From: an uncultured Planctomycetota bacterium
GTDB taxonomy: Bacteria; Planctomycetota; Planctomycetia; Isosphaerales; Isosphaeraceae
Length of the DNA stretch: 64,000 nt
NCBI GenBank assembly: GCA_963823665.1
Contig: CAWGMQ010000011.1
Span: forward strand, 512,001-576,000
Direction: 5' to 3'
Below are positions 21,368 through 56,833 of the stretch, one piece after another. How positions within the stretch are numbered: position 1 is the first letter of the stretch; each line of letters begins with the position of its first letter. Position numbers and translations under genes: made by a program. The notes below the pieces were generated by a model that had not been told where the DNA came from, did not search any database, and saw only the letters and a list, made by a program, of their open reading frames with translations.

Positions 21368-21820
21368 TGCGGCCCGCAGGATTCGAACCTGCAACCAAGG
21401 GATTCAAGGGCCCTCGCGTTTCCACGAGGCTTGGACTATCTCATCCTCCAGGTTCCTTTGCATCCAGGAAGGCGACCGGAACGAATTCCGGGCAGTTCTT
21501 CTGGATGCGATCGTCCTCTGGAGGCCGGGCGCTCGGGGCGGGGGTTATTGTTGGGGCTCACCCCGCTAGTCTCTGAACCTTCCTGGCCACCAGTGCCCGG
21601 CCAGGCTTGGCTGCGGATTGCCCTACCGAAGAAACAAGTCGGACAGATCGAGAACATCGGTCAGGAAAGGTCGTGCGAACGACCAAACCACCCGAGTAAC
21701 CGCCGCTCTGATCCTCTCGGTTTAGGTTTCCCGCAATTCACCCGGTTCGCAGTCGAAGGTTTCCCTCCGTTGCCACCTTTTGTTGATGAGTCCCCTGCTC
21801 TGCCGTTGAGCTAGGGCCGC
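21368..21820 (-). tRNA. non-initiator tRNA with CAT anticodon (Ile2 or elongator Met), interrupted by an intron; exons 21786-21820 and 21368-21404
   Basis: Joined exons GCGGCCCTAGCTCAACGGCAGAGCAGGGGACTCAT/AATCCCTTGGTTGCAGGTTCGAATCCTGCGGGCCGCA fold into a full cloverleaf. The 1-72 pair is formed and the initiator triple-GC anticodon stem is absent. Confidence 0.92.
21405..21785 (-). ncRNA. group I intron (IC-like core), 381 nt, no ORF
   Basis: P AATTGCGGGAAA, Q GGCAATCCGCAGC, R GTTCAGAGACTA, S GAGATAGTCC; P7 GACTA/TAGTC. The 5' exon ends in U, an IGS GTG can pair with CAT, and the intron ends in G. Confidence 0.92.
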
Positions 21821-39451: not shown

Positions 39452-40183
39452 TTGCGTCAGGAAAGCTCGAGAAAGGAGGAAGTGCCTCGAAACACAGAAA
39501 CCTTTCATCGCGACCCTGCGGGTTAACGAATCCCGCCCGGCAGAGCCTGGCCGGCAGCCGGAAGCAAGTCTTGCGTGGGGAGGGGTGACCCTCACTGCGA
39601 AGCGTAGACAGCGAGTCTCCATGCCATGCTATCGAGCCCCGAAATACTCATCGTGGGAGCCTCCGTTGTAGACACAAGCGGGGGCCGCGTCGACACGCCG
39701 CAATGGCCTGGCGTGTTCGGTCCTGCCGGGGTCCAAGAACATGGCGCAGGGACGCGAGGGTTGCTCGGGAACCTGAGAGCCCCATCCGTCTCCACTGACA
39801 TTTCCGGCTCGGGAACCGGAATACCAACTCCCCGGCCCACGACCCCGCGTCGGGTCGCTGGGAGCGAACAAGACGCAAGGGTGGTATCGCAACATGAAGG
39901 CAACGAAATGTGACGAAAGGGGCGGACGGGAGTCGGAGTGCTCCGTAGTAGCAGTGAAGCGGGGGAATGGGCCCTCCCAGACCCTGTGGAGCGAAGGGGG
40001 TACCGTGTCGCGGACTGGAAGCCGGAACCACGCCGAGGGCATTGGACCTCAGAGCGCGTCACCGCGAGGCGACCAGATCGTGTGAGGGACAGCGACGCCG
40101 CGACATGACGAGCCGGATGCCTTAATTGGGCACGTCCGGATCAGTGGGAGCCCTGGCGGAGCGATCCGCCAGGGCGACCCGGC
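39452..40183 (+). mobile_element. ORF-less group II intron, copy A (732 nt)
   Basis: Starts TTGCG. DV GAGCCGGATGCC-TTAATT-GGGCACGTCCGGATC; DVI with bulged A, ending ACCCGGC. EBS1 AGACAC (39670-39675) is complementary to the exon end GTGTCT. Confidence 0.93.
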
Positions 40184-41588: not shown

Positions 41589-42320
41589 TTGCGTCAGGAA
41601 AGCTCGAGAAAGGAGGAAGTGCCTCGAAACACAGAAACCTTTCATCGCGACCCTGCGGGTTAACGAATCCCGCCCGGCAGAGCCTGGCCGGCAGCCGGAA
41701 GCAAGTCTTGCGTGGGGAGGGGTGACCCTCACTGCGAAGCGTAGACAGCGAGTCTCCATGCCATGCTATCGAGCCCCGAAATACTCATCGTGGGAGCCTC
41801 CGTTGTAGACACAAGCGGGGGCCGTGTCGACACGCCGCAATGGCCTGGCGTGTTCGGTCCTGCCGGGGTCCAAGAACATGGCGCAGGGACGCGAGGGTTG
41901 CTCGGGAACCTGAGAGCCCCATCCGTCTCCACTGACATTTCCGGCTCGGGAACCGGAATACCAACTCCCCGGCCCACGACCCCGCGTCGGGTCGCTGGGA
42001 GCGAACAAGACGCAAGGGTGGTATCGCCAAACGAAGGCAACGAAGTGCGGCGAAATGGGCGGACGGGAGTCGGAGTGCTCCGTAGTAGCAGTGAAGCGGG
42101 GGAATGGGCCCTCCCAGACCCTGTGGAGCGAAGGGGGTACCGTGTCGCGGACTGGAAGCCGGAACCACGCCGAGGGCATTGGACCTCAGAGCGCGTCACC
42201 GCGAGGCGACCAGATCGTGTGAGGGACAGCGACGCCGCGACATGACGAGCCGGATGCCTTAATTGGGCACGTCCGGATCAGTGGGAGCCCTGGCGGAGCG
42301 ATCCGCCAGGGCGACCCGGC
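41589..42320 (+). mobile_element. ORF-less group II intron, copy B (732 nt)
   Basis: Same boundaries and domains as copy A; followed by GACATCCCC. Confidence 0.93.
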
Positions 42321-44408: not shown

Positions 44409-44728
44409 GGGGATCCCAGACACCCATCCTTTGTCTCAGGGATCCCAGACACCCATCCTTTGTCTCACGGCCCCCGCATCCATTCATTCGCGGCTCGCAC
44501 GCTCGGCGGAATACCACGGGATCCCAGACACCCATCCTTCGGGATCCCAGACACCCATCCTTTGTCTCACGGCCCCCGAATCCACTCATTAGCGGCTCGC
44601 ACGTTCGGCGCAAAACCACGGCCTCTGGTCATTTCCAACACGCAGAAGGCCAGTGCCCGACGCTCGGCAAACGGTGGGTGTCTGACATCCCTCTGACATC
44701 CCCGACGTTCGGCAAAAGGTGGGTGTCT
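44409..44728 (+). repeat. REP-like element copy 3, with four GGGATCCCAGACACCCATCC starts and a duplicated target site
   Basis: Stuttered left end; empty site GGGTGTCTGACATCCCTCTGACATCCCC precedes the filled site. Confidence 0.9.
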
Positions 44729-45306
44729 TTGCGTCAGGAAAGCTCGAGAAAGGAGGAAGTGCCTCGAAACACAGAAACCTTTCATCGCGACCCTGCGGGT
44801 TAACGAATCCCGCCCGGCAGAGCCTGGCCGGCAGCCGGAAGCAAGTCTTGCGTGGGGAGGGGTGACCCTCACTGCGAAGCGTAGACAGCGAGTCTCCATG
44901 CCATGCTATCGAGCCCCGAAATACTCATCGTGGGAGCCTCCGTTGTAGACACAAGCGGGGGCCGTGTCGACACGCCGCAATGGCCTGGCGTGTTCGGTCC
45001 TGCCGGGGTCCAAGAACATGGCGCAGGGACGCGAGGGTTGCTCGGGAACCTGAGAGCCCCATCCGTCTCCACTGACATTTCCGGCTCGGGAACCGGAATA
45101 CCAACTCCCCGGCCCACGACCCCGCGTCGGGTCGCTGGGAGCGAACAGGACGCAAGGGTGGTATCGCCACACGAAGGCAACGAAGTGCGGCGAAAGGGGC
45201 GGATGGGAGTCGGAGCGTCTCGTAGTACCGTTGAAGCCGGGGAACCACTCCGAGGGACCCGGTGGAGGGAAGGAGACGCCATGTCACACAACCGTTGGAG
45301 GGAAAC

Positions 45307-46658
45307 ATGGCGGGTGCATCGGAACCCGTGGACGTGTCCACGAAACAACAACGGATAGCGGAACTCGCTCGGCGAAGCCCGGAGATGGGATTCACATCCC
45401 TGGGGCACTTCATCGACCTCGATTGGCTGCTCACAGCTTACTACCGGACCCGCCAAGACGGGGCGGTGGGCGTAGACGGACAAGATGGCGAGGCCTACGC
45501 AGCGAACCTGGTCCCGAACCTACGGTCGCTGCTGGAACGAGCCAAGTCCGGTACGTACCACGCACCGCCTGTGCGGCGAGTGCATATCCCCAAGGCAGGC
45601 TCAGCGACCGAAACCCGGCCACTGGGAATCCCGACCTTCGAGGATAAAGTGCTCCAGCGTGCTGTCGTGATGGTTCTGGAGGCGATATACGAGCAGGACT
45701 TCAAGAACTGCTCGCATGGCTTCCGGCCCGAGCGATCGGCACACACTGCGTCAGAGAGCCTGTGGCAACAGACGATGAACATGAAGGGCGGATGGGTAGT
45801 GGATGTGGACATTCGTAAGTTCTTTGACACGATTGACCACGGCCATCTACGCGACTTCCTCAAGCGTCGGGTGCGAGACGGAGTGCTGCTCCGGCTCATC
45901 GGCAAATGGCTCAATGCGGGCGTCTTCGAGAACGGGTGCGTTACGCACCCCGAAATGGGGTCGCCACAAGGGGGTGTGATCAGCCCGATCCTTTCGAATA
46001 TCTTCCTGCACTACGTGCTGGACGAGTGGTTCGAGCGGGAGGTTCAGCCTCGGATGATGGGCAGATCGTTCTTGATCCGCTATGCGGACGACTTCGTCAT
46101 GGTCTTCTCATGCGAGTCCGACGCACGGCGTGTGATGAATGTGTTGCCCAAACGCTTTGAGAAGTACGGCTTGACCATCCACCCGGACAAGACGCGGCTG
46201 GTGCCGTTCGAGCGGCCATCGGACCGTCCCAAACCGGAAGGCAGACCCACACGAACTCCACCAGGGACTTTCGACCTGCTGGCGTTCACCCATTACTGGG
46301 GTCGCTCCCGGCAGGGTCGCTGGGTGGTGAAGCGCAAGACGTCCAAAAGTCGATTTCGCCGCAGCCTGCGAACGTTGGCGGATTGGTGTCGCAAAATCGC
46401 CATCAACCGCTCAAGGTGCAGCACCGGATACTAGGTCAGAAACTGCTAGGCCACTATGCCTACTACGGAATCACCGGCAACTCCAAAATGTTGTCACGGT
46501 TTCGCAGTGGTGCCACCTGGCTCTGGCAGCACTGGCTGTCGCGCCGCGGGCGCGGCCGTCGGATGACATGGGAACGGTTCGCTCGGTTCCTGAAGCATAA
46601 ACCGCTTCCGGCAGCGATTGCGATCCACTCAGTATGCCGTCTCGTAGCGAACAAGTGA
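45307..46658 (+). CDS. ltrA: group II intron reverse transcriptase/maturase without an endonuclease domain; frameshift at the A4 run 46393-46396
   Basis: GVDG, RPLGIPTFEDK, GFRP, DIRKFFD, GSPQGGVISP, YADD. The maturase X motif GHYAYYG is in ORF 46383..46658. GGAGG lies upstream. Confidence 0.92.
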
Positions 46659-46705
46659 CATGACGAGCCGGGTGCCTTAATTGGGCAAGCCCGGATCTGT
46701 GGGAG

Positions 46706-49125
46706 TCGCGAAACGAAGCTGCGGATGAGTCTGTTATGACTGGATTTGCAACCAGGACATAACCCGATGTACGACCACCGGAACCCTACCAGGACGTGCG
46801 GCCGGAGCAATCCGACCGTGCGAAGCTCTTGGGACAACGTAACCTCACCTTCGGGTGGTTGGATATCCCGTGAGGGAATCCGGCGACTGCGAACGCCAAT
46901 GCGGTCGGGGGCCAGGGGTGGATGGCATGGCTAATCCAGGTGAACTGCCGATAAACGTCGTGAGATCCAACAAGCCAAAGGCGCTGAGAGGCTTGAACCA
47001 AAAAGGTACGTGGCCAGGTACAGTGGGATTTCCCATCCCCTGTCGTCGTCATCCGAGCCACCGGCGGAGAGGCAGAGCCTAAACCATCCGTGATTCATCC
47101 GTGGAACGTGGTAAGCCCGTCGCCCTCCCTTCGGGGTAGGACCGTCGTAAGGCGTCGCCGATGGGGCGGCGGGTGGAGGATGAGGGAGCAAGCCAATGCC
47201 GTTCGGTAGTCGATCGGATAGAGGGTGAGTCCTCCCACGGACGACATCCCCTCACCGCGAAAGCGGTGCCGACTTCCCTCAGGTGTTCCGTCACGAGAGA
47301 ACCTTGGCCAACCGACTCAGGGAGACAAGCAGATATGTCGGCGGCAGAAATGCTTGCTGGTGCGGCTCCCGAGCTTACGCCCGACTGGCACTCCATCGAA
47401 TGGAAGAAAGTCTGGCGCACAGTCCGTCGGCTCCAGGCGCGTATCGTGAAGGCTGTTGCGGAGGGCAGATGGAATAAGGTCAAGGCTCTGGTTTATCTGC
47501 TCACGCACTCGTTCAGTGGCCGGGCCCTGGCCATTTTGCGAGTCATCAGTAATTCGGGTGCGAAGACTCCCGGTGTGGACGGAGTTCTCTGGAACACACC
47601 GGAAGCCAAGTCGGCTGCTTTCAGCACTCTGCGTCGGCACGGTTACCAACCGCAACCGCTCCGCCGGGTGTACATTCCCAAAAGCAACGGCAAGCGACGT
47701 CCTCTCGGAATTCCCACCATGTCAGATCGAGCCATGCAGGCATTATACTTGCTAGGCCTCGATCCCATTGCGGAATCTCGAGCCGACGGCCATTCCTATG
47801 GCTTTCGGCTGGAACGTCGTTGTGCCGACGCCCTGGAACAATCTCATATTGTCTTGGGTAATCGGAGCGGTCCAGCATGGATTCTCGAAGGGGACATCAA
47901 AGCTTGCTTTGATCGCATCAGTCATGACTGGCTCTTGACGCACGTCCCCATGGACCGGCAGTTGCTCGGGCAATGGCTGAAAGTGGGTTTCCTGGAGAAG
48001 CACGCCTGGTTCGCCACCACGGAAGGAACACCTCAAGGCGGGATCATTTCACCCGTCCTGGCGAATTGGACTCTGGATGGACTGCAACGGCTGTTGGCGG
48101 AACAGTTCGCCGAGAAGCACGGGCGACAACGGAAGTTTAAAGTCCACCTGGTCCGCTATGCGGATGACTTCTTGATCACGGGCATCTCAAAGGAACTCCT
48201 CCGTGACCAAGTGCAACCTCTCGTGGCTCATTTCTTGAAGGAACGCGGCTTGGAACTTTCCCACGAGAAAACCCAGATCACGCATGTGGAGGATGGCTTC
48301 GATTTCTTGGGGCAGAATGTGCGACGCTATCGCTGCGGCAAGGTGTTCACCAAGCCGTCCTTGCGAAACGTGAAGACGTTCTTGAACAAGATACAGGAAA
48401 CGATCGACGGCTCGGGCAGCCTAACGGCAGGAGAGATGATCTGGCGTTTGAATCAGCAGATCAAGGGCTGGACCATGTACCACCGTTACGCGGCGAGCAA
48501 GCGCACTTTTACGTACGTGGATCACCGGATTTTCCAGAAATTGTGGCGTTGGTGTCGACGACGGCACCAGAACAAAGGCCGGAGGTGGATCAAGGAGAAA
48601 TACTTCCAGCAAGACGGTTACCGCCACTGGGTCTTCACCGGTACGCTGTTTGACCAGAAAGGCCAAGGCCGGCCGATCCAGTTGATGGAAGCAGCCAAAG
48701 TGAAGATCATTCGTTATGTGAAGATCCGGAGCGACGTGAATCCCTACGATCCGAAGTGGGAACTGTACCTGGAAGCACGACTGGGTTGGCAACTGAGCCA
48801 AACGCTGGCAGGTCGGGGTCGGATCGAATACTTATGGAAGGAACAAGAGGGACGATGCGTGGTCTGTGGTCAACCGCTGCGGATCGCAGAGGAAGACTTG
48901 CATCTCCACCATCGCATCTGGCGCAGCCGGGGCGGTTCTGGCACAGCCGACAACCTGGAGTTGTTGCATGCCAACTGTCATCGGCAGATCCATGTCCAAG
49001 AACGACTGACGAAAGCGGCCGCGTCCTGCGAGGGGCGTTCGTGAAGGCTTGAGCTGCATGAAGGGAAACTTTCACGTGCAGTTCTGAGGGGAGGGGGTGG
49101 CGGTAACGTCACCTCCTTACCCGGC
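46706..49125 (+). mobile_element. second group II intron (chloroplast-like class by recall), nested in DVI of the outer intron
   Basis: Starts TCGCG. DV GAGCTGCATGAAGGGAAACTTTCACGTGCAGTTC at 49051-49084; ends TTACCCGGC. Removing it restores the outer GGGAG/CCTTGGGGG DVI. Confidence 0.9.
47335..49044 (+). CDS. ltrA: group II intron RT/maturase with a C-terminal HNH endonuclease
   Basis: WHSIEW...[42 protein letters not shown]...HH...[10 protein letters not shown]. Confidence 0.95.
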
Positions 49126-49318
49126 CCTTGGGGGAGCGATCCCCCAAGGCGACCCGGCGACATCCCTGACATCCCCTAAGCGTGATAAGTAAACGGCAGG
49201 GGAAGAGTCGGACGGTCGCTGGAAGCTAACTCCCACCGACGTAGTGACCCTAACGGCAGGCCCACCAGGTCGCCGTCGGCGGGGTGTAATTACAGCGCGA
49301 GCTCGTTATGATAAATCC

Positions 49319-56473: not shown

Positions 56474-56737
56474 GGACAACCGTCCGAGGAGGAGGAGCCA
56501 GGGGGAGCCAGACACCCAATCTCTGGACAACCGTCCGAGGAGCCGAGGAGCCAGAGGAGCCAGACACCCAATCTCTGGTTCCGAGGAGAAGCCAGGGAAT
56601 CCAGGCACCCATCCTTTTCTCACGGTCTTCCATATCCATTCATTCGCAGCTCGCACGTTCGGCGCAAAACCACGGCCTCTGGTCACTTCGAACACCCATA
56701 ACGCGAGTGTCCGACGCTCCGCAAGAGGTGGGTGTCT
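56474..56737 (+). repeat. REP-like element copy with a stuttered left end and no complete intron
   Basis: Duplicated GGACAACCGTCCGAGGAG and GAGCCAGACACCCAATCTCTGG units, then the core, ending GGTGGGTGTCT followed by GTGCG. Confidence 0.9.
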
Positions 56738-56833
56738 GTGCGTCGTTGGCTCGGTGTCACCGCGTTTGCGCCTGAATCTCTCGCCTGAATCGGCTCCTGA
56801 GCCCTGTGTCAAACAATTCCGGCCCCGGCAAAC

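Follow-up and report, generated by a model that had tools for sequence, protein, structure and literature searches.

Twintrons, where a group II intron lies within another, and intron lineages that specialise on other introns are both known. The RYADD-codon-homing introns M.a.I5, UA.I3, P.l.I2 and B.th.I3 invade the reverse transcriptase (RT) active-site motif of retroelements (PMC2504315); in Thermosynechococcus elongatus, TeI3, which lacks an open reading frame (ORF), lies in TeI4, the identical inner and diverged outer copies having been read as independent insertions (PMC2882425); and splicing of the inner intron first has been demonstrated for the T.e.I7/T.e.I8 twintron of Trichodesmium (PMC4649490). 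Introns of class IIB with an endonuclease move by reverse splicing into the top strand, cleavage of the bottom strand and target-primed reverse transcription (PMC4424553). Here, a twintron is described in a 64-kb window (the whole stretch analysed, i.e. positions 512,001-576,000 of the forward strand of contig CAWGMQ010000011.1, assembly GCA_963823665.1, from an uncultured Planctomycetota bacterium of the Isosphaeraceae), where a complete group II intron encoding an RT and an HNH endonuclease domain (the inner intron) splits domain VI (DVI) of a second, outer intron, itself carried by a dispersed repeat. The inner intron is very probably a recently active, CL1/IIB1-like retrohoming intron. In its clade, the exon-binding loops recognise that part of other group II introns which is most conserved, namely the end of domain V (DV) and the start of DVI. 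A lineage built on such a DV-DVI landing site seems undescribed, none having been found in the sections available of the full-text literature including PMC12584367, PMC5572947, PMC3534033, PMC3245105 and PMC8637638, although supplements or intron-database entries could already list such insertions.

Like the RYADD-homing lineage, the inner intron recognises, through its exon-binding sites (EBS) 1 and 2, a motif conserved in other group II introns, with repeated twintrons as the result. The target of that lineage is, however, protein-coding and its members lack an endonuclease, whereas the present intron carries HNH, reads the DV end and DVI start, finds its target in ORF-less hosts too and spares the host ORF; it works like the YADD-homing introns but, by its target and HNH domain, is not one of them. 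With T. elongatus it shares identical inner copies in diverged hosts, ORF-less derivatives and, to judge from the best PDB match (6ME0), probably the class of the intron-encoded protein (IEP). TeI3, however, enters domain IV between two start codons of a close relative, while in the present case the invader bears an ORF and its host, entered in DVI, is of a distant class lacking an endonuclease. The arrays of Methanosarcina acetivorans (review PMC4424553) likewise result from repeated site-specific homing, several introns deep and outside genes, to a perpetual homing site; that site lies in the RT ORF, whereas the nests seen here stack DVI remnants at 33-nt steps. The Trichodesmium twintron also has an IIB1-like inner intron in a bacterial host intron, but in domain I (DI), at a single locus and with no targeting lineage. 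The Euglena psbF twintron (review PMC8393795) places a group II intron in the catalytic end of its host, in DV, but the inner intron is a degenerate organellar one, fixed in a single event and of no known homing lineage.

A complete intron inside domain VI

The boundaries of the inner intron follow from an uninvaded, ORF-less host copy of the same window (732 nt), which aligns to 44729-45273, 46657-46705 and 49126-49158 and leaves as insert exactly 46706-49125. Within this insert, DI is matched by RF02012 (46763-46912) and DV/DVI by RF00029 (49049-49125), both above the Rfam cut-off, so that the alignment and the Rfam matches together bear out the proposal of a first-pass annotation that a complete intron of 2420 nt divides the outer DVI; in the window scan, RF00029 did not report the split DV/DVI end of the host. 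The same annotation had put the insertion at the DV-DVI junction, which is correct as to the region, the stretch recognised running from the DV end across the linker into the start of DVI, but not as to the point, which lies 8 nt after DV, behind the fifth base of the 5′ strand of DVI and 33 nt before the end of the host intron.

On in silico excision, G46701-46703 pair with C49153-49155 and G46705 with C49150, leaving A49152 unpaired. The expectation that removal restores a DVI like that of the short copies is matched by a natural empty allele, an uninterrupted long host in the same genome (G000:C7:960479, L063/L026) whose DVI folds in the same way. A complete intron thus lies inside another, which its removal restores. 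In circularly permuted group II RNAs, D5-D6 stand upstream of D1 with a short linker and no DV/DVI follows downstream (PMC8637638); such an arrangement is excluded here, since no more than half a DVI accompanies the upstream DV and a separate DV/DVI belongs to the inner intron.

The inner intron combines a DI-DVI ribozyme, with the DV triad and a bulged A in DVI, with an intact RT-maturase-HNH ORF, as in mobile group II introns, and has EBS1, EBS2 and EBS3, the last reflecting 3′ exon recognition of the IIB type. The best PDB match of its IEP is 6ME0 (E 7e-181, compared with 9e-39 for LtrA), a class indication by best match; 6ME0 is the CL1 protein of TeI4h. Taken together, these features suggest a CL1/IIB1-like mobile intron. 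Its ends, TCGCG...GC, depart from the GUGYG...AY consensus; since across the family the first base varies together with the penultimate one (T/G in 16, G/A in 14 and other combinations in 3; n = 33) and seven identical copies carry these ends, they represent a family variant and not decay. A UUGCG start has been described for another CL1 intron (PMC7923331).

Recognition of the host DV-DVI stretch

Folding DI alone did not give the known architecture (EBS1 paired with its own stem, z -2.3), and the exon-binding sites were therefore assigned by covariation with the intron-binding sites (IBS). The EBS2/IBS2 score is 4.5/6 against 2.63 for permuted pairs (30 distinct pairs; 0/10,000 as high) and drops to 1.2-2.5 when shifted by 1-3 bases, and that of EBS1/IBS1 is 5.07/6 against 3.54 (36 distinct pairs; 0/10,000 as high), the permutations ignoring kinship among the introns. 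EBS3 is the Watson-Crick partner of position +1 in 27 of the 33 introns with both ends (34 were given and one, without a found end, was dropped), the next best column reaching 16. The only position of the window, on either strand, that pairs EBS2, EBS1 and EBS3 without mismatch is the actual insertion site, which is therefore not a matter of chance. The TTCCCA loop at 47030-47035 had been proposed to read TGGGAG and is indeed EBS1, since from one relative to the next its sequence follows that of the final six bases of the exon. The GAACC motif lies where it had been reported, but the role of EBS2 suggested for it belongs to AGATCC (46963-46968): it is constant as GAACC or GGACC whatever the target, GAACC being found in 31/36 DV-type and 12/25 non-DV introns and GGACC in 2 and 11, respectively. 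As a separate observation, the 5′ side of the EBS1 stem (47023-47035) holds TGGGA, a copy of the target able to pair with EBS1 in the predicted fold, and the same is seen in L076 and L226.

The genome holds, at distinct loci, seven full copies of the inner intron, with no nucleotide difference among them, and one 182-nt 3′ remnant. All seven are inserted at the same nucleotide, following a host DV and TGTGGGAG or TGTGGGAA, and all eight precede a distal DVI that ends 33 nt further on. The invaded hosts are of the ORF-bearing form (four), of an ORF-less form 97% like the short copies (one) and of a second ORF-less family, 71-73% alike (two), so that the ‘helper’ intron is a target, as had been supposed, but not the exclusive one. 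The invaded long hosts are ~99% alike, differing mutually at 3-14 alignment positions, and the empty long host differs from one of them at 2. Among the host junctions gathered by pattern and BLAST searches, which may miss divergent hosts, those that pair fully (G-U allowed) are occupied in 7/9 cases, the two still empty belonging to an intact long host and to a decayed DVI that stands alone, and those with a mismatch in 0/18 (A at -8 in 13 short copies and in a lone DVI, C at -11 in one long host, and G at +1 in three junctions); the contrast is suggestive and not a statistic, since the 13 short copies are near-clones. The junction of the inner intron itself has four mismatches, and no self-insertion is found in the seven copies. 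Lone DVI pieces starting at a palindromic CCGGATC DV end also occur (L340, at G000:C3:129323, L178 and L237/L257; L339), several of them preceded by a short inverted copy (CAGATCCGGATC) and some themselves invaded; aborted reverse transcription may have produced them.

In GTDB, 66 loci were found by protein search, of which L076, L102, L123 and L133 are at the same site (three by the 3′ flank only). Matches were present in 22 of 120 genomes of the same family; the closest copies read there, in G061 (4/4) and G005 (L176), follow a host DV; in G038 the DVI junction is rearranged, and other sites are seen in G006 and in a second fragment from G005. The named holders are mostly metagenome-assembled planctomycete genomes and the holding runs mostly soil metagenomes. 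The metagenomes were scanned with a DI pattern leaving EBS2 open, giving 119 loci and 133 matches, 98 with a locatable 5′ end; 61 distinct insertions were kept after removal of duplicates, flanks <30 nt and identities <0.6. Base pairing, in place of a sequence pattern that overlooked hosts with an AAC triad, was then used to test for a DV whose end lies at -9: 17/19 insertions of AGATCC introns passed, compared with 11/17 with EBS2 AGAACT, AGAACC or AGAACG (five failing and one too short), 0/25 with any other EBS2 and 36/3000 random window positions. Indeed, EBS2 tracks the type of DV: AGATCC goes with GGATCT in 15/19, AGAACT with AGTTCT in 8/12 and AGAACC with GGTTCT in 3/4, and 12 different DV-end strings precede AGATCC introns in the metagenomes. 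In a DI tree of 76 sequences, from which the EBS1 and EBS2 columns were dropped, the window intron falls in a clade (starred) of 43 rows, 33 of them DV-reading; three distant DV-reading rows lie outside it and four changes are needed on the tree, which shows clustering only, since the labels were set by EBS2 type and recombination among siblings is likely. The seven copies, the sites of relatives and the EBS/IBS covariation thus uphold the view of an inner intron that homes site-specifically, at the DV-DVI region, into other introns of group II. Of the expectation that homologues have DV sequences as 5′ flanks, the part concerning the window's type stands, and it fails for one subclade and for distant homologues: DV targeting, as predicted from these flanks, holds for one clade, not for every homologue. 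Among 400 other genomes of the phylum searched, the same junction pattern had one non-intron match only, and the relatives found on plasmids were all distant, with less than 80% of the 5′ RNA covered in each.

The three tiers proposed at the outset (repeat, intron and intron-in-intron) are real, and relatives show a fourth. AGTTCT is the DV end of the window inner intron's own lineage, and in metagenomes ORF-less introns of ~817 nt with EBS2 AGAACT are inserted at the AGTTCT site of that lineage. Host DV, a full AGATCC intron and an AGAACT intron stand within one contig in L279, L286, L219 and L231; in L287, three 3′ ends are stacked at 33-nt steps, and L279 has a mosaic DVI, its distal half behind the inner intron stemming from another host or sibling, as in two loci of the present genome, L002 and L003.

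Several observations concern other target types. In a subclade at purine-rich sites (L225, L233, L243, L244, L256, L283, L296 and L298), the site of L244 ends in the Shine-Dalgarno-like AAGGAGGA. L157 and L159 (about position 1390), with 70% DI identity and EBS1 CCTAAC, lie directly behind inverted repeats ending GTTAGG/GTTGGG that look attC-like by eye; a CL1 intron behind attC has been described (PMC7923331). L083-L085, L094-L097 and L104 have a common 5′ flank and the 3′ flank ACGCACA, the reverse complement of a GTGCGT start, and possibly represent insertions on the opposite strand, a short way into the 5′ end of some other intron or element. Distant relatives also occupy other conserved stretches (L212, L224, L228, L242, L248 and others; L106 and L110; L111 and L116), which look like transposase genes of the IS110 and IS5 kinds and like a tRNA gene.

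The outer intron and other features of the window

Including the insert, the outer intron extends over 44729-49158, between GTGTCT and GACATCCC, and its DI is an RF02005 match (44804-45018). The right end of the repeat is its 5′ exon, with IBS1 GTGTCT at 44723-44728; the end of this exon is identical in all short and long host copies compared, and a host variant with EBS1 GGACGC has the 5′ exon GCGTCC. Besides the copy given in the table, three further ORF-less copies of 732/733 nt, ending at 40183, 60059 and 62767, make four in the window. At 56727-56745, a repeat copy has its right end followed by GTGCG, at the usual point of intron insertion, without an intron after it. The outer ORF of the window lacks one A at ~46392 and is frameshifted (375 aa, against 450 aa in L025 and L028), possibly as a homopolymer assembly error, since the extra A is present in contigs from three of the four sequencing runs mapped (two of DNA and two of RNA, out of 22 listed). 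It is intact in two of the six long host copies of the genome; the other four (L026, L027, L023 and L024) have one-base frameshifts, at shared or different places, as expected of long-read homopolymer errors or decay. The outer IEP, without endonuclease, is far from 6ME0, and its best plasmid relatives, at 52-58%, carry no class labels; a placement of the intron in bacterial class E, which it resembles, is tentative. Elsewhere in the window, at 21412-21798 (-), a group I intron (RF00028, 72.5 bits) has neighbouring ORFs for a DUF6348 protein and a fatty acid desaturase.

Table. Features of the twintron locus, numbered from the first letter of the window.
Feature	Coordinates	Strand	Remarks
ORF-less short host copy	41589..42320	+	732 nt; uninvaded; A for T at -8
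Dispersed repeat with inverted ends	44541..44728	+	REP/MITE-like (repetitive extragenic palindrome/miniature inverted-repeat transposable element; label our own); repeat families D7/D8
Outer intron, 5′ part	44729..46705	+	DI-DV and first five DVI bases; starts TTGCG
Outer EBS1	44947..44952	+	AGACAC; complement of 44723-44728
Outer RT/maturase ORF	45307..46659	+	no endonuclease domain; entirely upstream of the insertion
Outer DV	46665..46697	+	AGC triad; ends GGATC (canonical end GGTTC)
Inner IBS2	46693..46698	+	GGATCT (-13 to -8); 3′ strand of host DV basal helix and one linker base
Inner IBS1	46700..46705	+	TGGGAG; linker base and 5′ strand of host DVI
Inner group II intron	46706..49125	+	2420 nt; TCGCG...CCCGGC; by alignment to short host copy
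Inner EBS2	46963..46968	+	AGATCC; covariation with -13 to -8; exact complement of 46693-46698
GAACC motif	46995..46999	+	conserved in DI; indifferent to target
Inner EBS1	47030..47035	+	TTCCCA; covariation with -6 to -1
Inner EBS3	47069	+	G; pairs +1 (C49126)
Inner IEP	47335..49044	+	569 aa; RVT_N, RVT_1 (YADD), GIIM, HNH
Inner DV and DVI	49051..49125	+	DV 49051-49084; bulged A49119; by Rfam and DV/DVI fold
Empty target for ORF-less AGAACT sibling	49080..49093	+	AGTTCT-G-AGGGGA; cut 49092/49093
Distal outer DVI	49126..49158	+	branch A49152; outer 3′ end
Outer 3′ exon	49159..49166	+	GACATCCC; repeat end

Mechanism, alternatives and significance

Splicing, its inner-first order and mobility are what we infer from the sequence. 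In the proposed mechanism, the ribonucleoprotein would reverse-splice into the host site, HNH would cut the bottom strand and the RT would copy the intron in; because EBS2 pairs the 3′ strand of host DV, EBS1 the start of DVI and EBS3 the next base, the insertion falls 33 nt before the host end. The inner intron would then splice first, rejoining the helix with the host branch A, and this order would be enforced because IBS2 is itself one strand of host DV, so that full exon binding and the folding of the host catalytic domain would exclude each other. It is thus plausible that, as first suggested, the outer intron would be unable to branch until the inner one has spliced. As the host ORF ends upstream of the insert, at 46659, the host would keep its protein, spread and supply empty targets. 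A change in EBS2 switches the host range, AGATCC leading to GGATC hosts, AGAACC to the canonical GGTTC and AGAACT to the lineage's own AGTTC.

Several findings weigh against a recently active intron specialised on other introns. The contigs of the runs cannot separate spliced RNA from empty DNA alleles. The 13 mismatched short copies, being near-identical, are not independent, and mismatches do not bar insertion absolutely: L178 follows a -8 A variant, position +1 is A at the remnant L008, and AGATCC introns stand at GTTCT-type sites in L227, L288 and L305. Recombination also shaped the L002 and L003 loci, where the distal DVI comes from another host type. Among the metagenome insertions, five with AGAACT and two with AGATCC did not pass the DV test, most other GTDB loci (77-89% protein identity) and the relatives at ~75% DI identity are at unrelated sites, and a starred ten-row subclade nested in the DV-reading clade targets a purine-rich site outside introns. 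Two low-depth joints from 46705 to the distal DVI in the RNA run X12, with other letters between, fit empty alleles of related hosts no less well than splicing and were not used.

The most serious alternative accepts the targeting but no fixed order of splicing: the insert may be tolerated in DVI, or the host may splice hydrolytically, the twintron leaving as a whole (‘zombie’-like) or the host being inactivated. One-piece splicing has been reported for plant mitochondrial twintrons (PMC7049729), and the basal DVI pairs of the host could still form across the insert; yet the break lies directly above the base pair beside the branch A and not in a peripheral loop, IBS2 overlaps the host DV, and, whereas zombie twintrons have degenerate inner introns, the one found here is intact and was recently mobile, all of which makes this alternative rather unlikely. 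Still less probable is an intron that merely reads a purine-rich motif, its insertions into other introns being those that survive selection. The nested subclade, with the same C-rich EBS1, does use G-rich sites outside introns, and some AGAACT insertions show the motif without a DV, but the 13-base match occurs once in the 64-kb window, EBS2 has moved between three DV types and, since the full-match sites of the genome are host junctions or a DVI remnant, there would be hardly any other sites for selection to sort.

We give even less credit to passive spread, i.e. a single insertion copied with its host or by gene conversion without repeated homing. The four invaded long hosts are 99% alike, and L002 and L003 (G000:C8) carry the distal DVI of the long host behind other host bodies, with one base pair lost, a mosaic that suggests recombination or trans-splicing by way of the inner intron common to these hosts and has a similar swap in L279. 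However, an identical intron in hosts of 71-73% identity, the mere two positions separating an empty from an invaded long host and the 12 DV-end strings before AGATCC introns speak for repeated homing, and the compensatory changes by which EBS2 tracks DV type largely refute mere copying. That the arrangement is an assembly artefact of repeated introns is scarcely credible; although the assembly is large, with many near-identical introns and apparent homopolymer errors, a short-read contig crosses the junction (46191-46812, one differing letter and one gap), the identical junction recurs in unrelated assemblies and the EBS/IBS pairing is exact, so that for the junction this explanation is refuted.

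To the known twintrons, the window adds an intact, recently spread member in seven copies, for which there are an empty allele, a complete map of the EBS, targets both matched and mismatched for comparison, and a sibling that parasitises the window's own intron type. It also offers a natural test of what a ribozyme does with a 5′ exon formed by the catalytic helix of another ribozyme, and of whether or not competing folds enforce the order of splicing. Twintrons are discarded, or their outer introns overlooked, by standard intron pipelines (PMC4028801, PMC8919778) and, as RF00029 also misses the split host end, such lineages may be under-counted. Since DV and the start of DVI cannot easily change, an intron that reads them would have a self-renewing and harmless target wherever a genome holds introns, those without an ORF included. 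As a tentative picture, which we hold to be possible but less than even, the clade homes to the shared catalytic core in a host-parasite race, in which EBS2 would follow DV variants, hosts would escape by single changes in the linker or DV (the -8 A and -11 C copies are empty), the invader would spare its own junction, an ORF-less sibling would have been retargeted onto the invader, and the shared inner intron would let hosts swap branch-site hairpins.

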